Origin: a virus
Lineage: Duplodnaviria > Caudoviricetes
Virus record (IMG/VR): IMGVR_UViG_3300021400_001148
Location: 160,001 to 224,000 of that record
Length of the DNA stretch: 64,000 bases
Direction: 5' to 3' (one strand)
Under the pieces are notes generated by a model. It saw only the letters and a list, made by a program, of their open reading frames with translations, searched no databases and had not been told where the DNA came from. A program made the position numbers and the translations under genes. Every line of letters begins with the position of its first letter. Within the stretch, counting starts at the first letter, position 1. Of this stretch, positions 3,360 to 43,337 are shown one piece after another.

Positions 3360-5017
3360 TCTAATTTCTTTGATTTTGCCAGATTATTTTCAAAAGTGCT
3401 GATAGTCCTATTTCTATCACGAGTGTACTGGACCCCCCATTTTTTTTCCTTGTTTATCTTACTCAGGCGGTCATTATATTCTTTATATCGTCCCAAAACA
3501 TATTCAAGTGAAAGGAATTTATAGTGCAAAAGGAATACACTATTTCCAGTATACCATTGTATGCTCCCAATCGGGGAACAATTGTGCGCCCCGGCAGAAT
3601 ATTTTATATCCTTAATGGCGTTTGGGTTGAATATCGTGACTTTTCGGAAAGTTTTATCCGGAAAACCGTTCGGTATCTGTTCCCACATAAGGCCCTTACC
3701 TTCTATTGGGAACGCTTCCGAAACCATGTTATAACCGAACGGCTTACAGATGGTTTCACCGCGGGCTTTCATTTTTTCAAGTTCATTTCTAATACCATTG
3801 GGTGAATACATGAATTCATCCAAATCGCACACCACAACAAAATCAGCCTTTCCCCTTGATGCTTTCCAAACCTCATTTTTCAGTCTTCGGTGGATATCGT
3901 CATTGAACCCATCACTGGAAAACTCCACTATATGAACATTGGGGATTTTTGAGAGGTATTCTTTTGAGCCGTCTGTTGAATTATTGTCGAGAACAAAAAC
4001 TTCATCTGCAATGGTTTTCCAATACTCAACGGCAAACGGTAAAATTTTTATCTCATTGTAACACAATGTATACAAATGGACCGTAAGATTTTTCCCTTTA
4101 TTACTCGGTTTTTCATACAATGACGGTACGGGAAATAAACTATCCAATGCGTGGTTCACTTCCACCTTTGTTTTCTCAAAGTCAGTAACCCCGGAGTCAT
4201 TTATGCAAAGTAGTTTACTTCTGTTTTGTTTAATCCTTTCGACAGCCGCACGCGTAATTCCGTGTTCAAAACTGATATATACAGAAGTTGTTTTTGGGTT
4301 TTTCACACTCTTTTTCTTGATTAGGTCATAGAATGAAAAAAGGTATTGATTGTAGCATTCTCTCGTCCTGAACCTTCCTATCTTGCGTTTAATTTCTTCG
4401 CCGCATTTTTCCCAAACCTCAATGTAACTGCTTCTCGTAAGAGGGTTCACCATGTGTTTTGGCATAATGCGACTGAAATTGATATGTGAACCACTGGCTT
4501 TTTTTGCTAAAAGAAATGAATTCTGAAGTTGAGCCTCATATTCTGAATTTCTTACATCGTATTGGGTGTTGGTTAACGAGTAGTTCAAAACAGGGCGGCC
4601 ATCAACGAAAAAGTCTGTTTCTTCACACTTACTAGAAACAAATGTATCATCATTAGCATAAATAAACCGTTCAGATATCCCCGGAATAAAACCCAAAAAC
4701 ATCTCGATGGTGGTTGAACAGAATGTGGGGAGGTATTCTTCCGGTATAAAATCTTTGTGTAAAACCACTTTTACCTTGTTTCGATTCACCCATTCCGGTA
4801 CTTGTGATTCACTGGATACAACCAAAAACACATTACCAATGAACGGGAGGTTGTCCTGAACCCCCCGAAGATTGTATTTGAGATTGTCCCATGACCTGAA
4901 ACGCTCTTCTAATTTTGAAAAATCCACAACTGAGTTGGTAGAATATTTTTCAAAAGTTTCCAACCATTCAGGGTCAGAGGAATCAACATATGTCACAACA
5001 TAGTCGATTTTTTCCAT
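3347..5017 (-). CDS. Stealth-family sugar-phosphotransferase fused to a GT2-like glycosyltransferase
   Basis: Stealth CR1 IDYVVTYVD, CR2 LKYNLR...LPTF..TTIE...FIYANDD, CR4 LCIND; C-terminal YNE..LP, DNNSTDGS, VCDLDEF, LLHYK. Confidence 0.85.
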   Translation of the reverse strand: MEKIDYVVTYVDSSDPEWLETFEKYSTNSVVDFSKLEERFRSWDNLKYNLRGVQDNLPFIGNVFLVVSSESQVPEWVNRNKVKVVLHKDFIPEEYLPTFCSTTIEMFLGFIPGISERFIYANDDTFVSSKCEETDFFVDGRPVLNYSLTNTQYDVRNSEYEAQLQNSFLLAKKASGSHINFSRIMPKHMVNPLTRSSYIEVWEKCGEEIKRKIGRFRTRECYNQYLFSFYDLIKKKSVKNPKTTSVYISFEHGITRAAVERIKQNRSKLLCINDSGVTDFEKTKVEVNHALDSLFPVPSLYEKPSNKGKNLTVHLYTLCYNEIKILPFAVEYWKTIADEVFVLDNNSTDGSKEYLSKIPNVHIVEFSSDGFNDDIHRRLKNEVWKASRGKADFVVVCDLDEFMYSPNGIRNELEKMKARGETICKPFGYNMVSEAFPIEGKGLMWEQIPNGFPDKTFRKVTIFNPNAIKDIKYSAGAHNCSPIGSIQWYTGNSVFLLHYKFLSLEYVLGRYKEYNDRLSKINKEKKWGVQYTRDRNRTISTFENNLAKSKKLECLK

Positions 5018-5938: not shown

Positions 5939-6058
5939 AGCCAGAGGGAGGATTCGAACCTCCAACCTACGGTTTGTTCAATAATTTTAAAAATTGCTGT
6001 TAGCCTCCGTATTTACCAAAGGCATTTATCCGCCGCTCTACCGTTGAGCTACTCTGGC
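5939..6058 (-). tRNA. tRNA-Thr-like gene with ~47 nt insertion in the anticodon arm (anticodon not assignable)
   Basis: GCCAGAG/CTCTGGC acceptor, GCTC-AACGGTA-GAGC D arm, GGAGG-TTCGAAT-CCTCC T arm; 120 nt; own promoter at 6067; no encoded CCA. Confidence 0.8.
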
Positions 6059-32660: not shown

Positions 32661-32686
32661 AACGCACCCCGGTAAGAGGTGCGTTT
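32661..32686. terminator. bidirectional terminator
   Basis: aacgcacc...ggtgcgtt hairpin between convergent genes. Confidence 0.65.
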
Positions 32687-34157
32687 ATTCTTTGTACCAT
32701 GTGTACTTTATTAGCCCGCAGTCATAAATCCTCATAAGGCCAGCAGAAGTAGCCATTTCAGACTCTGTAAGGTTCAGGGGTAAGTCAAATCTTCTGGACA
32801 AATCGCTCTTTCTGAAACCAAATTTGTGAGCCCTTACTAGTTTACCATTCTTTACAGTTATATATCTATAATCAGGCAAAAGTATTTTCTCTTTTTTAAA
32901 ACCAAGTCTATCATATAAATTTGGCTTAATTGTCGTGGTCCACCGACGGTCAGCGAAAGACTTGATTTTTTTCGGGTCCCACCCGTCTATAAATTTTTTC
33001 AATAATTTTCCGGCAACGCCACAAACAACATAATCTATTTTAGACGCAAAACGGTTTAGTTCCCACTCATCCTTTCTTTTAATAAAAGTCATCACCGAAA
33101 CAAGTTCGGAGTTGAAAAAAGCGCCTAAATAAACAGTTGCTTTACTAAAACCTTGTATGTGGTTTATATATAAAAAATCCTTAGCCTCTGCCGCTGAAAT
33201 TGTGGAAACATCACACTTCCTCCCATATATATGTTTCCCACAGGATAAGTTCAAAATATGTTTTATTTTTTCTAAAACAATTTCCCGGTGGTTTACATAT
33301 TCATCTTCAAAAACTTGTATTAGCCTTATTCCTTTTGATTCACAGGCTTCGGTTTTCATTAGGTGATAGTTTTTATTTTTTTTCTCAGAACTATGCCAAT
33401 ACAAACCATTATATTCAATTGCCAACTTGTATTTCGGAATATATACATCCAATTCAATATTTCCAAGAGTTTTTCGGTCTCTGAATATTACATTCTCCGG
33501 TCCTACGATACTTTTAACATATTCACCTATTTCTGTTTCTGCAGCAGAGGTGTTGGCATAACACTTCAAACACCCACCATGTGGTGAGGTTAGGTGGTCG
33601 CAGGCAATTTTTTCAAACATATTGCCGCATTTGCGGCACTTTATCCTGATTTTACTATGGCTGTTTTTATATAAAGTGTTTATTTCAGGAAATTCATAGA
33701 TATCACCAAACCTTTTTTTCGATTCTTCAATAAAATCATTATATTGCCCCCGCCTCCACTCTTTTGCGTATTTTTTCCCGCACTCAGGACAGCCTTGTTT
33801 TTGGAAAATGTGATTGTGCGGGTTCTGTTTGAAAACACCGTGTATAGGACATATAATGCTAACCGGCGTTCTCTTGTTCACATAATGTGTAAGTGAATAG
33901 TCGTACTTGTCCCCGTGTATTTCTTTGGCTTTTTCGATGAATTTTTCTGTATTCCACTTATGAAGTCCGGAGCACTCGGGGCAGCCATTGATACTAGATA
34001 GGAAAACAGACGGTTTTGCCCAGAACTCACCATGTTCCGGGCAAATTATGCATACCTTTGTTTGGCTGTTTTTGTATTCTACTTTCGAATAGTCAAACTT
34101 GTTTCCGAACTTCTTTATAGCCTCTTCAAGAAATTCGCTTTGTGTTTTTTTCTGCAT
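32685..34157 (-). CDS. free-standing homing endonuclease-like protein (DUF723-like Zn repeats, Vsr/PD-(D/E)xK-like nuclease, GNAT-like C-terminus)
   Basis: YDYS...IICPxHGxF repeats; ELDVYIP...AIEYNGLYWHS; WELNRF, SFADRRW, IYDCG. Confidence 0.8.
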   Translation of the reverse strand: MQKKTQSEFLEEAIKKFGNKFDYSKVEYKNSQTKVCIICPEHGEFWAKPSVFLSSINGCPECSGLHKWNTEKFIEKAKEIHGDKYDYSLTHYVNKRTPVSIICPIHGVFKQNPHNHIFQKQGCPECGKKYAKEWRRGQYNDFIEESKKRFGDIYEFPEINTLYKNSHSKIRIKCRKCGNMFEKIACDHLTSPHGGCLKCYANTSAAETEIGEYVKSIVGPENVIFRDRKTLGNIELDVYIPKYKLAIEYNGLYWHSSEKKNKNYHLMKTEACESKGIRLIQVFEDEYVNHREIVLEKIKHILNLSCGKHIYGRKCDVSTISAAEAKDFLYINHIQGFSKATVYLGAFFNSELVSVMTFIKRKDEWELNRFASKIDYVVCGVAGKLLKKFIDGWDPKKIKSFADRRWTTTIKPNLYDRLGFKKEKILLPDYRYITVKNGKLVRAHKFGFRKSDLSRRFDLPLNLTESEMATSAGLMRIYDCGLIKYTWYKE

Positions 34158-35865: not shown

Positions 35866-37575
35866 TTAAATATCTTGCTTCTTTAATGTCCAGATATATT
35901 TTCTTGTTCCGCAGTCATACACCCGGTACCACCCTTTAGATTCACAAAATTCTTTTTCTGTCATCTCTGACGGGCATCCATATTTCCTAATGAGCACATC
36001 TTTTCTCATATTAAATCGATTAACCCTGCGTTTATTGATTACATAAAAATAACTTGGGGGTGTGTTCTCCTCAAACTCAAACCCTATTTTTTCATACAAG
36101 TTTCCATTGGACCATCTCCTGTCAGCAAAAGACTTAACTTTTTCCGGAGAATATGTTTCTACGAAATACTTAAACATTCTGCTTGCACCCCCGACTACGG
36201 TTGTGCCCAGCATGTTAGCAAACCTCACTAATTCATATTCTTTATCATTCCGAGGCTTACCGTTAAGATTAATCCTGTTTCGACAAAATGCCATAACACT
36301 CACCAGTTCATCTTCATAAAACAAGCCTATTCTCACATTCGTTTGTGTTTTACCTTGTATGTGGTTCCTGTCTAAAAACCGAGTGGCCGTTTTCGAGTCT
36401 ACTTCCGCAATACGACAATTTCTTGCATATATCTTTTTCTCAGTAAAGCCGAGGATGTTCCTAATCCTACTTTTACAAATGCTGTTCTTGAGCATCCACT
36501 CATCATCAAAGATTTGTATCAGGCGAATGCCCTTCTTTTCGCATTCTTCAGTTTTCAACAAGTGGTACTTCTTTTCAGTATTAAACTTTTCAGAGTGCCA
36601 GATTAGCCCATTCATCTCAAAACCAATGTTCAGGCCGGGGATAAAAATATCAATCTCCTTCGGGGGGATTACATCTCTGACATTTTCAAGAACCTCCGTA
36701 CTAGGTAGAAGTGACTTGATATACTCCAATAATTCTTTCTCAACCGTTGACTTGTCTTTAAAACATTTTGGACAGCCCTGCCCAAAAAGGTGGTTCCCCG
36801 CTATCTGTTCAAATTCACCGTGTATTGGGCATATTATCTTTAGTGGCTGACGGCTGTTTTCGTAAACAGATTGAGTATAATCATATTTGTCACCGTGAAC
36901 TTCCCTTGCTCTTTGCACCCATTCTTCTGTCGTCATCAATCTTTCACTACCACACTTTATCCTTCCACATACGGGACACCCTTGTTTTCCTTTGATGTGG
37001 TTGTTCATTGTTTGATAAAACACTCCATGCTCAGGGCAAATAATTGGATATTTAATACGGTCATTCTTGTACTCCGTGAGCATTGAATAATCGTATTTGT
37101 CCCCGTGGACTTTTTTTGCTTCCTCTATTACGGATTGAATACTCCTGCGATTCTTGGACGATGACTTTATGTATCTACACTTTGGGCATCCCTCCCCGGA
37201 CAGCAAGTGCCCCGGGGTTATTTCAAACTGACCATGTTCACAGCCGTTTTCGTCTTTCTCGTGACAAGTAACTGTTATTTTGGTTTTATTATTTACATAG
37301 ACCGTATTTTCGAATGTATATGTGCTGCAATGAGGTAGTTTGCTTACTTTATCAACAAACTCCTCGGTTGTGTACTGGTATCTTCCACTGCACTTTTTGC
37401 AACCATCGCCACGATATATGTGATGATAAAAATCTTTGTAAAAGACACCATGCTCTGGGCAAATGATGGGGCATTTAGTTCTATTATTTACATATTCTTT
37501 TATAAGAGAATAGTCATATTTGAAGTTATGCACCTCGTTTGCCAATCTGATACATTCGGATAGTGTATTTTTCAT
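35866..37575 (-). CDS. free-standing homing endonuclease-like protein between the polymerase halves
   Basis: four YDYS/CPxHGxF/GCPKC repeats; EIDIFIP...FEMNGLIWHS; YELVRF, SFADRRWS, VYDCG. Confidence 0.82.
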   Translation of the reverse strand: MKNTLSECIRLANEVHNFKYDYSLIKEYVNNRTKCPIICPEHGVFYKDFYHHIYRGDGCKKCSGRYQYTTEEFVDKVSKLPHCSTYTFENTVYVNNKTKITVTCHEKDENGCEHGQFEITPGHLLSGEGCPKCRYIKSSSKNRRSIQSVIEEAKKVHGDKYDYSMLTEYKNDRIKYPIICPEHGVFYQTMNNHIKGKQGCPVCGRIKCGSERLMTTEEWVQRAREVHGDKYDYTQSVYENSRQPLKIICPIHGEFEQIAGNHLFGQGCPKCFKDKSTVEKELLEYIKSLLPSTEVLENVRDVIPPKEIDIFIPGLNIGFEMNGLIWHSEKFNTEKKYHLLKTEECEKKGIRLIQIFDDEWMLKNSICKSRIRNILGFTEKKIYARNCRIAEVDSKTATRFLDRNHIQGKTQTNVRIGLFYEDELVSVMAFCRNRINLNGKPRNDKEYELVRFANMLGTTVVGGASRMFKYFVETYSPEKVKSFADRRWSNGNLYEKIGFEFEENTPPSYFYVINKRRVNRFNMRKDVLIRKYGCPSEMTEKEFCESKGWYRVYDCGTRKYIWTLKKQDI

Positions 37576-37623: not shown

Positions 37624-40110
37624 TTATTTTATGCCAGAATAAGTGCTCACTTCAGATATCATTTTTAAAAAATACAACCCAGCAAGGCAAGTTTTACTAT
37701 ACTGAATGTCATCGCGGTAATTTTTTATGAACACCTCGTAAAATTCTCGCCCTTCTTTTGTTGGCCTATTAAGAAACCATGATGGAACTCTGTCTATTTT
37801 ACCATTCGCAAGTGCTTTGGCGTAAAAATGAGGATTTCTTGTATCCGCCGGAAGCCATTTTGCTTTTTTAAAAACCTCGTAATCGTTAAAATATTCAAGA
37901 TGAGTTTCATTATTAACTTCTGATGGCTTAATTTTTTCCTTTTTATCATTAAAAAGGCTGTGGTCTTCAGTGACTTCTATCTTCATATCACCATCTGTGA
38001 TTTCATAAATGTCCTTATCAGTTTTATGGCGGTAAATGTATGATGGGGTTACCCATCCACTTCGACAAAGGACTTGGTACGGTTTTGGCGAATAATCGTA
38101 TTCACGGCCAAGCGCATCAGTTTCAATTTTATTCTCATCTATAAGTTCGCATATAGGTTTAATATCAATTGCTCCATTCTTTACATTGCGAACAAATACA
38201 GGAGTGTCTTCAGTGAACGAGTCGCCAACGATAGGCTTATAGCCAAGTCCCATAAAATGGCTTATCATTAAGCGAAGGCTTTGTCGGCCAGTACAGGTGA
38301 TTCTCTCAGCACAGTTTTTGTCGCCAAGAGGGAAAAGGTTTTCTGCGCCAAAACTACCAAACGCTGAGTTTCCAAGGATTTTCAGAGGGTTCTGTAATCG
38401 GTCATTCTTCATCTCCTCATTTTCCCAGTGCTGGATTTCGGAGAGTAAAGATTTATCTTGTGTCTCTTTATACTCTTTTCGTTTGGCCTCGGCGTTTTTG
38501 GCACCTATTTTCTTTAGTTTCTTATATGTCTCTCGCTGTGTGAGAACATAGTTCAGCATGGCCGGGAGAACACCCTGAATATCAATTTTCGGGTCAATGT
38601 GCCAAGTAAGCATAATGGAGGGGTACAGAGAGTTGTAGTCAAGTTTGATGACTTTCTTAATGAACCCCGTGCGGCAAAGACGGGACAAACCCCCGGTAAA
38701 TGCACCACCCTTTCCGAAAGCCGGAACAGCAAGGCCCTGCTCATAGGACCACGCAAGAATAATAAGTTTCCAAATGCCGGCGGTACCCATTGTACAGGCC
38801 CTTGCAAAACCAGTGGGAACAATTTTATTAATAAGGAAATTGGCTTGATTAAGTTGGAGTTCCACCTTGTCAGTTTCCCAAATATCATCAAGGAGGTACC
38901 GGTCAACGATGTAGGCACCTGTCTTTAACACATATCCCTCTTTAAGGGGATGTTTTTCATCAACAAGATACCAATCCCCGTTTTCATCGTTAAAGGCAAA
39001 TGCGTCGCCCTCTGTCCTGAGAGTCGTAGTAATCTTGTCTCCGGGGATGTATACACGGTTCGGCTTGTTCAGTGAAAGATACTTGGTAACATACTTCAAG
39101 TCTGCTTTAAGCATACTACTATCACCGGCCTGTGCACGGCGGGCGGCGTGCAGACTATCGAGAACGATGTGCCCCGGGACGATTGTCTGATAATATGTTT
39201 CAACCTCACCGCCGAGTTTAAGTGTTGTCGGCTTCGGGTTCTTGTAAATAGGGCCGCCGAAAAGTTCTTTGGTAAACGCTTCGAAATCGCCACCAAGAAT
39301 CTTATATCTTGCAATGACATGGTTCCAGTCGAAGTTCTCACTGTTGTGACCGGCAATGGTATCCGGGTCCTTTGTGTATATGATTCTGAGAAAATCTTCA
39401 ATGCATTTTTTCTCGCTTGCGTCCAGTTCCTCTTTGGTATTTCCCTTGACAGTAAGAATCTTCTCGAAGCCCTTGTTAACCCTAATACCGATTTTAGTGA
39501 TGCGGTGCTTGTCCTCGAGGCCCTCGGACTCAATATCCCAAAGAAGTCTGTGGATATCGTCATAAGTTTCATAACCCTGAAACAGTCTCGTGCCAGTAGC
39601 AATCATATACTGTTCCTGTGGGGAGACAGAAAGGAAAGGCCTGTCGTCACCCATGAACTGTTTATTGTCAGGGTCATCGTTATTGCCGCGGTCAGAAAAC
39701 ACCGGAGTCCCCGCATCTTTGAAAAACTTCAGAAATGTGGAGTATGACATTGGATGTGTGGCTCTGAAAATGAACTTGTAGCCATTGACCATTCGTTCCT
39801 CTTCAGTGCCATCATAGCCTTTTGTACGAAGTTTCTTTACCTCAATTCCGTATTTGTTGAGGAGTTGCTTAACCAGATGACGGTCACCGCCGCACATCTT
39901 GTCACAGATAGAATATTTTGCCCATACGAACGGATAGAAGTCGTCGTATTTTATGGCTTTTTCGTCTTTTTCTGTTCTGTATGTGATTTTGGCCTGTGTA
40001 TCTCCGTATGTAATATCAACTGAGATTGCCCGTTTGAAGGGGTTGCGGCCGTTCAAGAATTTCTCAATTTCCTCAAAGGAAATGTTTGGCTTTTGCTCTA
40101 TTTCTGCCAT
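37624..40110 (-). CDS. polB: DNA polymerase B N-terminal half (3'-5' exonuclease, motifs A and B) fused to split-intein N fragment
   Basis: WDIES, GHNSENFD, YLLDD; DYNSLYPS; KILGNSAFG; VGD followed by intein. Confidence 0.9.
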   Translation of the reverse strand: MAEIEQKPNISFEEIEKFLNGRNPFKRAISVDITYGDTQAKITYRTEKDEKAIKYDDFYPFVWAKYSICDKMCGGDRHLVKQLLNKYGIEVKKLRTKGYDGTEEERMVNGYKFIFRATHPMSYSTFLKFFKDAGTPVFSDRGNNDDPDNKQFMGDDRPFLSVSPQEQYMIATGTRLFQGYETYDDIHRLLWDIESEGLEDKHRITKIGIRVNKGFEKILTVKGNTKEELDASEKKCIEDFLRIIYTKDPDTIAGHNSENFDWNHVIARYKILGGDFEAFTKELFGGPIYKNPKPTTLKLGGEVETYYQTIVPGHIVLDSLHAARRAQAGDSSMLKADLKYVTKYLSLNKPNRVYIPGDKITTTLRTEGDAFAFNDENGDWYLVDEKHPLKEGYVLKTGAYIVDRYLLDDIWETDKVELQLNQANFLINKIVPTGFARACTMGTAGIWKLIILAWSYEQGLAVPAFGKGGAFTGGLSRLCRTGFIKKVIKLDYNSLYPSIMLTWHIDPKIDIQGVLPAMLNYVLTQRETYKKLKKIGAKNAEAKRKEYKETQDKSLLSEIQHWENEEMKNDRLQNPLKILGNSAFGSFGAENLFPLGDKNCAERITCTGRQSLRLMISHFMGLGYKPIVGDSFTEDTPVFVRNVKNGAIDIKPICELIDENKIETDALGREYDYSPKPYQVLCRSGWVTPSYIYRHKTDKDIYEITDGDMKIEVTEDHSLFNDKKEKIKPSEVNNETHLEYFNDYEVFKKAKWLPADTRNPHFYAKALANGKIDRVPSWFLNRPTKEGREFYEVFIKNYRDDIQYSKTCLAGLYFLKMISEVSTYSGIK
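37627..38220 (-). mobile_element. split intein N fragment (IntN, 198 aa)
   Basis: block A SFTEDTPVFV, block B EVTEDHSLF; ends at a stop codon without blocks F/G. Confidence 0.85.
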
Positions 40111-40193
40111 TTCTTTCAAAAAATTATATTTATAGTTATAGGATTAGAGCACACACTTGTGCATCATCTTTTCGTGACAAATATACAAAAATT

Positions 40194-41351
40194 ATGAAGA
40201 TTTTTTTAACCGAGGAGCAAATAAGAAAAATGCTCAACGAATCATTTTCGAGATACATATACCATTTTACAACATATGAGGTACTTTACAATATGCTAAA
40301 AATGGACGCGTTTATTCTGAGTAGTTCGTTAACAACACAAGTCGACAAAGAATTAAATAATGGCTATTCTTTTTACATGTCATTCACAAGGCAACACACA
40401 AACAAAGTTGGCTTCCCGGCGTGGAAAAACTATGTGGTATCCAGAAGTAATGGCCCAGAGAGTGACTTTATGAATGTTAGAATTACAGTAAACGGTGATT
40501 TGCTGGGCAGTACATATAAGGGCTCTCCGGTAAATTATCACCATAAAGCAATACGAACAAGCAATCAGCAAAAAGAGGTTGGGTCTGACCCGGCTGTGCT
40601 GGTTACAATAAGGCAATCAGAAGATAGACTTTTGTCCAACGAACCCATTGTTAAAGGGATTTCGCGTTTCATTGAAAGAATAGACATTCTGGCTCCGAAA
40701 TCTGAAAACAACACCATAAAACAGAATACGGTAAACTCAATTTATAAAATATTAAGAATATCAAAGAATGAATATGCAAACAGAATTTTTGTCTATGATA
40801 ACGAAAGGGATTTTAACATGCCTAAGTCAAGAAATTACATCAATGGCAAAATAATCTCTATGCTATCAGGCAATATTCTTAATTCAATTAACGATAAAAA
40901 CATCATTAATAATGATATCGTAAAGCAAAATACCGTTACTAGCAGAGGGCATGACAGAATTAAACTTTTAAGTCAATATCAACTCGAATATATTGGCGCA
41001 ACTGCCATAATGCTGGCAGAATTGACTAGAAACCCGGGGAATATAGAAAAATATATTGATTATATTTTTTCCACAAGACAAAAGTATGTCGGAAATACAA
41101 AGATAGCAAGGGAAAAAGGACAAGCCCTGCGGCTCGGAAAAAAACTTTTTAAAACGAACAACCCCATTGAAAGTTATCTGGGAAAATTTAAGTTTTTTTC
41201 CCAGTCATTTTCTGGCAGCACAAGAGACATGTATGCTCTTATGATGCATTTAATGAAACAAGTCGTAGATGCTTATGGATTTGGCTCAGTTCCGCAGTTA
41301 CTCCGAGCCATTAATAGTGGAAAACTTAAACCAATGCACTTGAACCTTTAA
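40194..41351 (+). CDS. leader-motif protein with putative ADP-ribosyltransferase-like fold
   Basis: MKIFLTEEQIRKMLNES then YHFT...MSFTR...QSEDR (H-S-E-like order). Confidence 0.5.
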   Translation: MKIFLTEEQIRKMLNESFSRYIYHFTTYEVLYNMLKMDAFILSSSLTTQVDKELNNGYSFYMSFTRQHTNKVGFPAWKNYVVSRSNGPESDFMNVRITVNGDLLGSTYKGSPVNYHHKAIRTSNQQKEVGSDPAVLVTIRQSEDRLLSNEPIVKGISRFIERIDILAPKSENNTIKQNTVNSIYKILRISKNEYANRIFVYDNERDFNMPKSRNYINGKIISMLSGNILNSINDKNIINNDIVKQNTVTSRGHDRIKLLSQYQLEYIGATAIMLAELTRNPGNIEKYIDYIFSTRQKYVGNTKIAREKGQALRLGKKLFKTNNPIESYLGKFKFFSQSFSGSTRDMYALMMHLMKQVVDAYGFGSVPQLLRAINSGKLKPMHLNL

Positions 41352-42448
41352 AAAAAAGATGCCAGTACATTAATTCCTTTTTCAACCTTTCGTTGGAGTG
41401 TTCCGAACTTCTCTTCGTTTTCATCTAGACACTTACTATTTTTGTAGTAATTCAGAAATTCATTAAGTTCGAACAGTTTATTCAGTATTTCATCCACCTC
41501 TTTTGAAGCATTTTCGTAAACAATATCATCTTTTGTCATTTCTCTACCGTGAAGGTCGTTGAAATCTTTGTTTTCTTCCTCTGTTAGAGGTTCGGAATAT
41601 CTAAGGAAATTGTTCATGGTATTTTGTTGTTTTAAAATTTTTCTTACTTCAGAATTCGTCTTATATGTTGTGGGTGTGAATCCAGTACTGTCTTCTTTCG
41701 GACCTAGTGTTCTTTCTATTTTTGTTTTTAGTTCATCTGGTATTAGAAAACCACCATCATCTTTTTTTTGTAGTCTATAGATGGAATTTGCTTCCTCTTC
41801 TGGTGTCATTTTTTGCAAGCTGTCGGAAGAAGAAAACGCTATATAAGCAAAATCAACCCCCGAACATAGGTTTGATTGTAAAAAACTCGGTACAAAGTTG
41901 TTCACTTGATTGGTTCTTTGATGAAACGGCTTGTCTGGAATGAGTTTTCTTTTGCCGGATATACTTCGTTCCACATTTCTTCTCATTGCCACGGACCTGT
42001 TCACGACCACCCATATAATGGATACTGTATATCCTAGGGGTTTAACCATACTGACAATTTCTTCAGCAAGGCTTTTTTCTCCTCTTTTTCCCGGCCGGCC
42101 ACATATGTCAAATATGATGTTTCCCTTGTTCTTTGTTTGGTTTTTTAAGAAAAGTTCTTCTGATTTTTGTAACTTTTCCGCGGAAGCACGGTGTAAATCT
42201 TTGAAACTAGGAATTTTTTTCCCTTGCTGTTTCAAAAGGTTTTCGTAGTTTTGCCTAAATAAATCAATATCAAAAACCTTACCGCTTATTGGTAGTTTGT
42301 TTTTCAAAAGGTATGACTTACCGGAACCAGGTGCCCCCATCAAAATTATACATTGCCCGTAATTCGGAAAGTTACCATTATTGAATGAGATAGTCCTGAT
42401 TTCATTTATGACTTCACCAACTATTTTATTCACTATGTTGTTGCTCAT
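41348..42448 (-). CDS. P-loop kinase (zeta-toxin/AAA_33-like)
   Basis: GAPGSGKS, IIFD, VAMRRNVER lid; N-terminal IVNKIVGEVINE. Confidence 0.75.
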   Translation of the reverse strand: MSNNIVNKIVGEVINEIRTISFNNGNFPNYGQCIILMGAPGSGKSYLLKNKLPISGKVFDIDLFRQNYENLLKQQGKKIPSFKDLHRASAEKLQKSEELFLKNQTKNKGNIIFDICGRPGKRGEKSLAEEIVSMVKPLGYTVSIIWVVVNRSVAMRRNVERSISGKRKLIPDKPFHQRTNQVNNFVPSFLQSNLCSGVDFAYIAFSSSDSLQKMTPEEEANSIYRLQKKDDGGFLIPDELKTKIERTLGPKEDSTGFTPTTYKTNSEVRKILKQQNTMNNFLRYSEPLTEEENKDFNDLHGREMTKDDIVYENASKEVDEILNKLFELNEFLNYYKNSKCLDENEEKFGTLQRKVEKGINVLASFF

Positions 42449-42489
42449 ATGCAATAAATATAACTTTTGTATACAAAGATAATTAAAAA

Positions 42490-42514
42490 CGCCAGAACAT
42501 TTTTTGTTCTGGCG
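42490..42514 (-). terminator. terminator downstream of tmRNA
   Basis: cgccagaaca/tgttctggcg stem followed by T run on minus strand. Confidence 0.75.
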
Positions 42515-42521
42515 CAACAAG

Positions 42522-43111
42522 TGGAGCTGACGGGACTCGCTGAGTATTACTCTGGGCCATCTCATCATCTGTTCTAGATGCTGCTCGCTATAGGCTCACC
42601 GTAGTGTCCTTGGTCTCTGAACCTTCCACAATCTTCCTTGTGGCTTGGCTGCTGATTGCCTCTTCGGTTTCCAGCAATTCAAGCAGTTTTTAACATAATG
42701 TCCCCATTATGTGGGTCCGATATGCTGAACCCGTGTCCAAACATCTCATCCAATCGCTTTCTACACATTTATCCCAATGTTGTTTTTCGTAATCCCCCGG
42801 GAGATGGGCTTCCAAAGAGATTCTTAACCCGGTTCTACTTAGGCGGGATTTACGGATGTTACCCGCTTGCATCTGATTGTAATTGCACCCCTTAGCCACA
42901 ACCATACAGAAAACTGTGAGGGATGTACGCCGAGCGGAACCTTGTTCTGCTCTGTCGCAGCCCGGAATCACCTAGTGATTAGGCAGCATAAGCGTAAGAG
43001 TAAGCGTAACGATTAGCAGTTACTTTTTTGGTGTTCTGGATTAACGGGACCACCACCTTCGCCCGATGTGCTTACGATGAAACGACAATGCTGTCAAAAC
43101 CAAACAGCCCC
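42522..43111 (-). ncRNA. ssrA: tmRNA, intron-containing; tag (A)ANRYAYSYAYAA*
   Basis: 5' GGGGCTGTTTGGTTTTGACAGC; acceptor GGGGCTG/CAGCTCC-A with G3.U; tag ORF 43017-42979 after TAACT; T arm ACGGG-TT^CGAGT-CCCGT. Confidence 0.93.
42540..42727 (-). mobile_element. group I intron (188 nt, no ORF) in tmRNA T-loop
   Basis: P1 GGGUU/GACCC with U.G, P2 with GGGA loop, AATTGCTGGAAA, AATCAGCAG, TTCAGAGACCA, TGAGATGGCCC, terminal G. Confidence 0.9.
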
Positions 43112-43118
43112 ATTATAA

Positions 43119-43337
43119 CTATTTCAGTCTTTGAGAAATCCTCCCTCTAGTGAGGTCGTAAGGGGACATCTCAACTTTAACTTTATCGCCCTCAATTACT
43201 CGAATATTATTCATCCGCATTTTTCCAGAAAGGGTACACAGGATTTCAAGGCCGTTCTCCAGTTCAACCCTGAACATTGCATTGGGGAGTGATTCAATCA
43301 CACTCCCCTGCGTTATAATAGCCTGTTGTTTACTCAT
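43119..43337 (-). CDS. infA: translation initiation factor IF-1
   Basis: 72 aa; [15 protein letters not shown]...[10 protein letters not shown]...[18 protein letters not shown]. Confidence 0.95.

Follow-up and report, generated by a model that had tools for sequence, protein, structure and literature searches.

A 188-nt group I intron without an ORF in the T-loop of a phage tmRNA gene

Intron-form tmRNAs and small phage introns

Group I introns in the T-loop of tmRNA are well documented in bacteria, as a recent catalogue (PMC11915505, Nawrocki et al. 2025) reports 883 unique intron-form tmRNA sequences from 21 phyla, distributed over four T-loop subsites, with a mean founding intron length of 293 nt and a smallest intron-form gene of 545 bp. 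The first case to be described was that of C. botulinum at subsite 7, and subsite 3 is represented by nine genome instances, all belonging to the class Bacteroidia (Bacteroidota). The same work catalogued 79 phage tmRNAs, and neither its text nor its phylum table gives a phage intron form. The C. botulinum intron (287 nt) self-splices, and for the 167-nt intron of the Derbesia plastid tRNA-Leu gene self-splicing was not detected (PMC2729099). In Jug jumbo phages, ORF-less introns with an average length of about 206 nt are spliced in vivo, as evidenced by metatranscriptome reads (PMC12880540). No report of a phage tmRNA intron was found in the literature searched, most subscription journals lying outside that search.

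In the current study, a 64,000-nt stretch of phage DNA (the window; positions 160,001 to 224,000 of IMG/VR record IMGVR_UViG_3300021400_001148) was analysed, and comparison of related sequences confirmed that positions 42727-42540 on its minus strand represent a 188-nt group I intron that has no ORF and interrupts the T-loop of a complete phage tmRNA. As far as its core features are testable, the intron corresponds to those of subsite-3 intron-form tmRNAs, and it resembles the bacterial subsite-3 cases in being a T-loop group I intron with U(-1)/omega-G borders whose removal rebuilds the T-loop, while the catalogued set includes HEGs located after P9 (PMC11915505). It differs from the bacterial intron-form tmRNAs in its location in a phage genome, in its length (188 nt versus a mean of 293 nt) and in a P5 that is a stub and a P9 that is reduced or, in its relatives, absent. 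Since the smallest catalogued gene (545 bp) is shorter than the 590-bp phage gene, equally small bacterial introns may exist, and the designation ‘smallest known’ was rejected in view of the 545-bp gene and of the Derbesia intron. What is new here is that the intron lies in a phage and that P5 and P9 have been lost together; the intron-form layout has already been catalogued in bacteria, and knowledge of tmRNA and of group I chemistry is unchanged by the finding. A preceding sequence-only reading had called the intron very compact, which holds in so far as it is small, although it is no record given sister introns of 177-186 nt and the Derbesia and Jug introns; the statement that T-loop introns of tmRNA are rare was an overstatement in light of the 883 catalogued sequences, and the chosen example, C. 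botulinum, carries its intron at subsite 7 rather than subsite 3.

The Jug-phage introns share with the present locus a jumbo-phage setting with Bacteroidota as hosts (probable hosts in the present case), a small size, the absence of an ORF and the occurrence of free-standing nucleases elsewhere in the genome, but they reside in protein genes, number about 18 per genome and are described in a paper that makes no mention of tmRNA (PMC12880540), whereas the genome studied here contains only the tmRNA intron and one group I core in a tRNA-Lys-like gene. The introns of T4 td, S-PM2 psbA, the Bacillus-phage polymerase and crAss-like phages have P7.1 and lack P5abc, as does the tmRNA intron, which in turn differs from phage IA-type introns in the absence of P7.2, in its minimal P5 and P9 and in having an RNA as host gene. 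The Azoarcus (IC3) and Derbesia introns are likewise very small and located in tRNA-like exons; the Azoarcus pre-tRNA-Ile intron, of about 205 nt, keeps both the L2-P8 and L9-P5 contacts, whereas the phage clade keeps L2-P8 and P7.1 and drops L9-P5.

The interrupted gene and its borders

ARAGORN called no tmRNA in the unspliced 64-kb window, and Rfam model RF00023 matched positions 43111-42723 (minus strand) at 77.9 bits, the model breaking at the T-stem. Following in silico deletion of 42727-42540, ARAGORN recovered a standard tmRNA of 402 nt to the discriminator, with tag ANRYAYSYAYAA, a 7-bp acceptor stem including G3.U70 and a perfect T arm (ACGGG-UUCGAGU-CCCGU), thereby substantiating the intron coordinates, the restored T arm and the spliced length of approximately 402 nt that had been predicted from the sequence alone. 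As judged by Rfam and ARAGORN, the features expected of a complete tmRNA are present, namely the acceptor stem with G3.U70, the tag frame with its stop codon, and helix 2.

The 384-nt 5' exon (42728-43111, minus strand; RF00023 and ARAGORN on the spliced sequence) contributes the 5' strand of the acceptor stem, helix 2, the pseudoknots, the tag frame, the 5' strand of the T-stem and the first two U residues of the T-loop. The tag reading frame and its stop codon occupy 42979-43017 (minus strand; ARAGORN positions 95-133 of the spliced tmRNA), and the tag is identical in the intron-less relatives L114 and L158. The 3' exon, deduced from the sequence and ARAGORN, extends over 18 nt to the discriminator A (42522-42539, minus strand), retains G3.U70 and encodes the CCA tail only partly; an intrinsic-terminator-like hairpin of 11 bp with a T run (42489-42515, minus strand) lies directly 3' of the tmRNA, and gene callers put the start of the downstream kinase-like gene at about 42449. 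Upstream, 8 nt separate the stop codon of the IF-1 gene (43119-43337, minus strand; Pfam eIF-1a, E 2e-25) from the tmRNA start at 43111, and synteny in related phages reveals ClpB-AAA-IF1-tmRNA to be a conserved block. An SmpB gene is absent from the 100%-complete phage genome.

The intron (42540-42727, minus strand) was matched by Rfam RF00028 (Intron_gpI, relaxed filters) at 42737-42540 with 47.8 bits and an E value of 5.6e-11, which is just under the 50-bit gathering score of this model; routine annotation therefore misses it, as ARAGORN is also blank on the window, and subsite-3 phage introns evade both ARAGORN and the Rfam gathering cut-off. The intron folds with a z score of -4.13, and none of 200 shuffled sequences folds as well. 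It is inserted after the second loop U, i.e. at T-loop subsite 3 in the numbering of PMC11915505, and its preceding base U(-1) and terminal omega-G at 42540 satisfy the group I splice-site rules. Two ORFs across the intron (41348-42568 and 42690-42971) were considered as genes and rejected as chance extensions, and there is no endonuclease ORF inside it, in agreement with the earlier description of the intron as ORF-less.

The intron borders are fixed independently by intron-less alleles in related phages. Syntenic ClpB-AAA-IF1-tmRNA blocks were retrieved via the neighbouring AAA gene, and in the nearest relatives by AAA (L112 and L114, 84-85% identity) the tmRNA is uninterrupted, the T arm of L114 matching the predicted spliced product at every position.

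Contigs from three RNA libraries, originating from two studies, cover the tmRNA 5' exon. The contig from run X5 crosses the 5' splice site to position 42657, 71 nt into the intron, and those from runs X9 and X11 do not cover the intron and stop at different positions (42730 and 42753, respectively). The RNA contigs show no spliced joint, the 3' exon of 18-20 nt being shorter than the assembly word; since so short an exon is lost in contig assembly, the contigs argue neither for nor against splicing, and RNA libraries may hold DNA.

A number of tmRNAs of related phages (L100, L119, L122, L127-L134 and L159-L162) specify tags that end in Cys, e.g. DNSYAYAYAYAC, rather than Ala-Ala; these adjoin a phage ClpB/ClpC-like ATPase, and such tags could evade or redirect host proteases. 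The viral contigs L078 and L080-L083 have the first 22 nt of the window tmRNA in common with it, within an apparent permuted two-piece tmRNA gene.

Conserved core and reduced periphery

All helices described below are encoded on the minus strand. In P1 (42713-42732, from the fold), exon GGGUU and an intron C lie opposite the guide GGACCC, the 5' splice site being marked by a U(-1).G pair, and a 3-bp P10 can form between guide bases 42720-42718 (UCG) and the 3'-exon CGA; invariance of the guide in the site-3 set is a product of search-pattern selection, and the two bases 5' of the guide are at least 90% conserved in that set. P2 with its GGGA tetraloop, L2, spans 42693-42712 (seven of eight pairs change on both sides), and the 5' strand of P3 (42680-42686) has its partner at 42587-42581 (five of six pairs change on both sides). 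P4 (42650-42676; 42676-42671 with 42655-42650) is invariant in 16/16 homologues and encloses J4/5 together with P5, here a 2-bp stub with a 5-nt loop (42667-42659), and is followed by P6 and P6a (42621-42649; five of six P6a pairs change on both sides). The strands of P7 lie at 42611-42617 (5') and 42554-42559 (3'), G42615-C42555 being the G-binding pair, while the P7.1 hairpin (42592-42610), with an internal loop, a UACG loop and three pairs that change on both sides, is placed between P7 and P3, as an IA-type insertion. P8 (42566-42580) carries a CU:AG tetraloop receptor, as indicated by covariation and the L2 pairing rule, and a reduced P9 of 4 bp with a 3-nt loop (42542-42552) shows a compensatory change against L102.

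P1, P2, P3, P4, P6/P6a, P7, P7.1, P8 and a 4-bp P9 can all be drawn, and the sequence-only reading was correct for every helix it listed, although the reduction of P5 to a 2-bp stub and the lack of a GNRA tetraloop in L9 had escaped it. The drawn helices are 99.3% paired across 16 site-3 homologues, as compared to 27-41% in slid controls (the homologues being mutually related, shuffle counts from this set do not represent probabilities), and 25 of the 46 pairs change on both sides. A P3-P7-P8 and P4-P6 core with P, Q, R and S elements is present (RF00028, covariation). The combinations GNGA/CU:AG and GNAA/CC:GG constitute the L2-P8 tetraloop-receptor rule, which is obeyed in 17 of 18 introns, a GGGA L2 being found with a CU:AG P8 in 12/13 and GGAA with CC:GG in 5/5. 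At the level of sequence, the compensatory changes, with L2 and P8 covarying, show that pairing of the catalytic core is under selection.

The periphery presents a different picture from that of longer relatives. The P4-enclosed region measures 14-17 nt in the minimal introns versus at least 23 nt in longer relatives, while the stretch from P7 to omega-G comprises 6-8 nt without a P9 in the 177-182-nt forms, and 14-15 nt with a 4-bp P9 and a 3-nt loop in the 186-188-nt forms; the long site-3 relatives possess a full P9 that is usually GAAA-capped. Docking of a GNRA L9 in P5 was not found in the 188-nt intron, where P5 has 2 bp and L9 is 3 nt with no tetraloop. P5 and P9, which are the partners of the L9-P5 contact, have accordingly become smaller jointly, with retention of L2-P8. 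Loss of the L9-P5 contact usually lowers group I activity. With regard to subgroup IA, P7.1 is present and covaries, and P7.2 and P5abc are absent. We consider it likely that the intron, though much reduced, works as a group I intron, putatively of the IA type. Sister introns without a P9 and with a canonical P7 occur at L122:4074-4250 and L159:3756-3934 and in L132, L100 and L128.

The joint loss of the P5 and P9 peripheries would also be in keeping with splicing that takes place in vivo only with a dedicated host or phage protein cofactor, as in degenerate plastid tRNA-Leu introns, self-splicing being absent, and self-splicing went undetected for the Derbesia (167 nt) and Bryopsis (206 nt) introns, the RNAs of which were partly degraded (PMC2729099). 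However, searches of the genome revealed no maturase candidate, L2-P8 and P7.1 are kept and are GC-rich, and general chaperones would suffice; a strict need for a cofactor is in our estimation unlikely.

In P7 the bulged A and the G-C pair are present, and the pair next to the G-C is an A.C mismatch (A42614.C42556), adjacent to the G-binding pair. This mismatch, already noticed in the sequence-only reading, is real: the intron is identical in 4/4 full-length loci compared (L106-L109) and in a DNA run, with intact exons, and since two intron-identical copies differ at 34 of 7137 positions, a sequencing error does not account for it. The pair is A-U in 32 other distinct introns and A.C in this one of the 33. 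A second P7 pair, C42612-G42558, is a compensatory change from the U-A of all other introns, and most of the substitutions that set this species apart preserve pairing in the same way (P2, P6a, one P7 pair and P9).

The uniqueness of the A.C pair among 33 introns and its position beside the G-binding site, together with the lost L9-P5 contact, could signify that the intron, though real, is crippled or dead in the source species, in which case the tmRNA would remain mostly unspliced and be a recent pseudogene, dispensable by virtue of the host tmRNA. It would accord with this that the branch to the 188-nt intron, at 0.16, exceeds all others of the clade in length, that an RNA contig from the source sample passes the 5' splice site and that some relatives, such as L117, are without a tmRNA altogether. 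Against such decay, the neighbouring changes in P7, P2, P6a and P9 are compensatory, the acceptor stem, G3.U70, tag and terminator are all intact, the sequence is unchanged in copies from several studies, and an A.C pair is able to mimic a wobble; we regard it as improbable. Activity of the intron in vivo is instead judged likely to very likely.

Distribution, ancestry and mobility

A pattern combining tmRNA and intron retrieved 17 matches from IMG/VR, 13 of which were true cases (seven at subsite 3, one at subsite 7, four at subsite 8 and one truncated). The site-3 pattern retrieved 22 metagenome stretches, some duplicating the IMG/VR matches, and, from a collection of 185,579 species, a single genome, the match being on an apparently bacterial contig of the Prolixibacteraceae; this single match undercounts bacterial site-3 introns, as the pattern used on the genome collection demanded a T-stem GGG and a single guide sequence. 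For 200 other Prolixibacteraceae genomes only the exon was covered, among the matches listed. Site-3 introns were thus found mostly in viral and metagenomic contigs, and subsite 3, seldom seen in bacteria, extends to phages and is recurrent there. In annotated phages, BLAST matches were confined to the P4-P6 core. Searches of IMG/VR with the exact spliced junction gave no match, and with a pattern for further P9-less introns none were found; the exact 5'-end pattern returned unrelated genes only, and IF-1 relatives in IMG/VR were too distant, with none adjoining a tmRNA.

The intron is a member of a phage clade of 177-188-nt introns with a stub-like P5 and with P9 either reduced or missing. 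In the tree, the six distinct minimal introns group as one clade (support 99/98), which is nested among HEG-bearing site-3 introns with weaker support (88/96) from a short alignment, its tree neighbours being the long, LAGLIDADG-bearing introns of L069, L085, L088 and L077. Relatives with an AAA identity of about 62-65% have same-site introns of 177, 179, 182 or 186 nt, or none. Within one species, whose AAA protein is identical and whose DNA is about 98% identical, a 182-nt intron occurs in L128 and L129 and none in L127, L130 and L131; the persistence of intron-less alleles within one phage species indicates that the intron is dispensable. In these three intron-less alleles one T-stem pair is flipped at -5/+8 from the insertion site, a change that would also abolish the last P1 pair and that is shared by L119. 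The flip (T arm, about 3750-3960) is a candidate homing-resistant allele or co-conversion marker. The intron has a patchy distribution across the AAA-protein tree, and in its 3' half the window tmRNA is nearer to the intron-bearing group than to its closest AAA relatives, which suggests that the intron was exchanged together with flanking exon or was repeatedly lost.

ORFs are present in many of the long site-3 introns; they lie on either strand and mostly downstream of P9, the commonest encoding a single-motif LAGLIDADG protein. Those of L067, L073 and L063 contain non-LAGLIDADG ORFs of 160-200 aa on the opposite strand, which appear HNH-like by eye, Pfam matches for L073 being weak and uninformative; accordingly, more than one endonuclease type has entered tmRNA introns. 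In the 100%-complete phage genome, neither Pfam LAGLIDADG nor homologues of the intron ORFs were found. One weak LAGLIDADG-profile match (genome 272324-273085) runs on the strand opposite a 1191-codon frame and was dismissed as a shadow frame. A homing endonuclease is thus encoded by long relatives and neither by this intron, which has no ORF, nor, as regards LAGLIDADG, by its genome.

The sequence-only reading had proposed that nearby free-standing endonucleases mobilise the intron in trans, for which the window offers two DUF723-repeat proteins (32685-34157 and 35866-37575, minus strand), paralogues that share 38% identity and give weak matches of the PD-(D/E)XK type and to Mom. The patchy occurrence on the AAA tree and the polymorphism within one species do imply that the intron moves or is lost, and would fit either mobilisation of this kind, one of the two proteins having a weak PD-(D/E)XK-type match, or the use of splicing as a tmRNA switch during infection. 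Yet the DUF723 genes lie 5 and 8 kb from the intron and belong to a multicopy family (a third copy and a fragment occur elsewhere in the genome), their products bear no likeness to the ORFs inside site-3 introns, and collaborative homing usually needs a nuclease beside the intron. As long relatives possess LAGLIDADG genes and this genome does not, mobilisation by neighbouring nucleases is unsupported; regulation is indicated by nothing, sister phages managing without the intron, and both proposals are highly improbable.

We rather favour an origin from a site-3 intron that carried a LAGLIDADG gene behind P9, would have homed into a phage tmRNA and would subsequently have lost that gene together with most of P9. 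Once in place, the intron would persist because the tmRNA needs it spliced, and its present movement would be passive only, through recombination or through conversion during co-infection by a HEG-bearing relative. That Bacteroidota phages are the main reservoir of subsite-3 introns and that the T-stem flip is an escape from homing is a tentative and rather doubtful proposition. The single phage lineage provides a natural deletion series in identical exons, ranging from HEG-bearing introns over the 186-188-nt and 177-182-nt forms to intron-less alleles, which offers a direct test of the periphery required by a natural group I ribozyme and of its tolerance for an A.C pair under the G site.

Predicted splicing, phage host and further elements

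The two-step, guanosine-dependent reaction is established group I chemistry. The tmRNA would be transcribed with IF-1 or from its own start, up to the terminator at 42515-42489, whereupon a free guanosine bound in P7 would attack after U42728 and the 5' exon would then attack after G42540. The resulting 402-nt RNA is predicted to fold its T arm, receive CCA, be alanylated and work with the SmpB of the host, invoked here since the phage has none. As splicing restores the T-loop, the tRNA-like domain could form only by this route, so the earlier view that tmRNA maturation is splicing-dependent appears sound. The L9-P5 clamp having presumably been lost through the joint shrinkage of P5 and P9, the remaining supports would be L2-P8, P7.1 and the tRNA-like domain that holds both exons together, with a probable contribution of cellular Mg2+ and RNA chaperones. 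A lower splicing rate than that of full-size introns is likely, and the A.C pair under the G site would slow the reaction further in the source species.

The source record, that of a giant ruminant-gut phage, comprises 354,809 bases with direct terminal repeats and is rated complete. Sequencing runs that contain at least half of the window derive from gut and bovine-gut metagenomes; smaller shares of it occur in goat-gut runs. A Bacteroidota-type -7 promoter motif precedes 18.7% of 284 genes versus 5.7% in the background, and no enrichment of Shine-Dalgarno motifs was found before the phage genes; based on this threefold enrichment and on the lack of Shine-Dalgarno enrichment, the phage host is probably a member of the Bacteroidota, with which the Bacteroidia range reported for subsite 3 agrees (PMC11915505).

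The further group I core of this genome is located in the tRNA-Lys-like gene, which spans the contig ends outside the window: the 5' half of a tRNA-Lys(UUU) is followed by an intron of roughly 555 nt, the whole extending from C1 354462 through the terminal repeat as far as about 350. The R and S elements of this intron are canonical, a clear ORF is lacking, and its excision restores the anticodon stem; as no T arm follows, the gene may be broken or rearranged. A tRNA at window positions 5939-6058 (minus strand; Rfam 53.5 bits, ARAGORN Phe with intron, anticodon uncertain) has an insertion of roughly 46 nt in its anticodon loop with no group I core, and a tRNA-Glu at genome positions 1208-1364 contains a similar 71-nt insertion. 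Finally, the family-B DNA polymerase frame at window positions 37624-40119 (minus strand) encodes 831 aa as compared to about 1120 aa in relatives, and since its end diverges into intein-like sequence, this gene appears to be split or interrupted.
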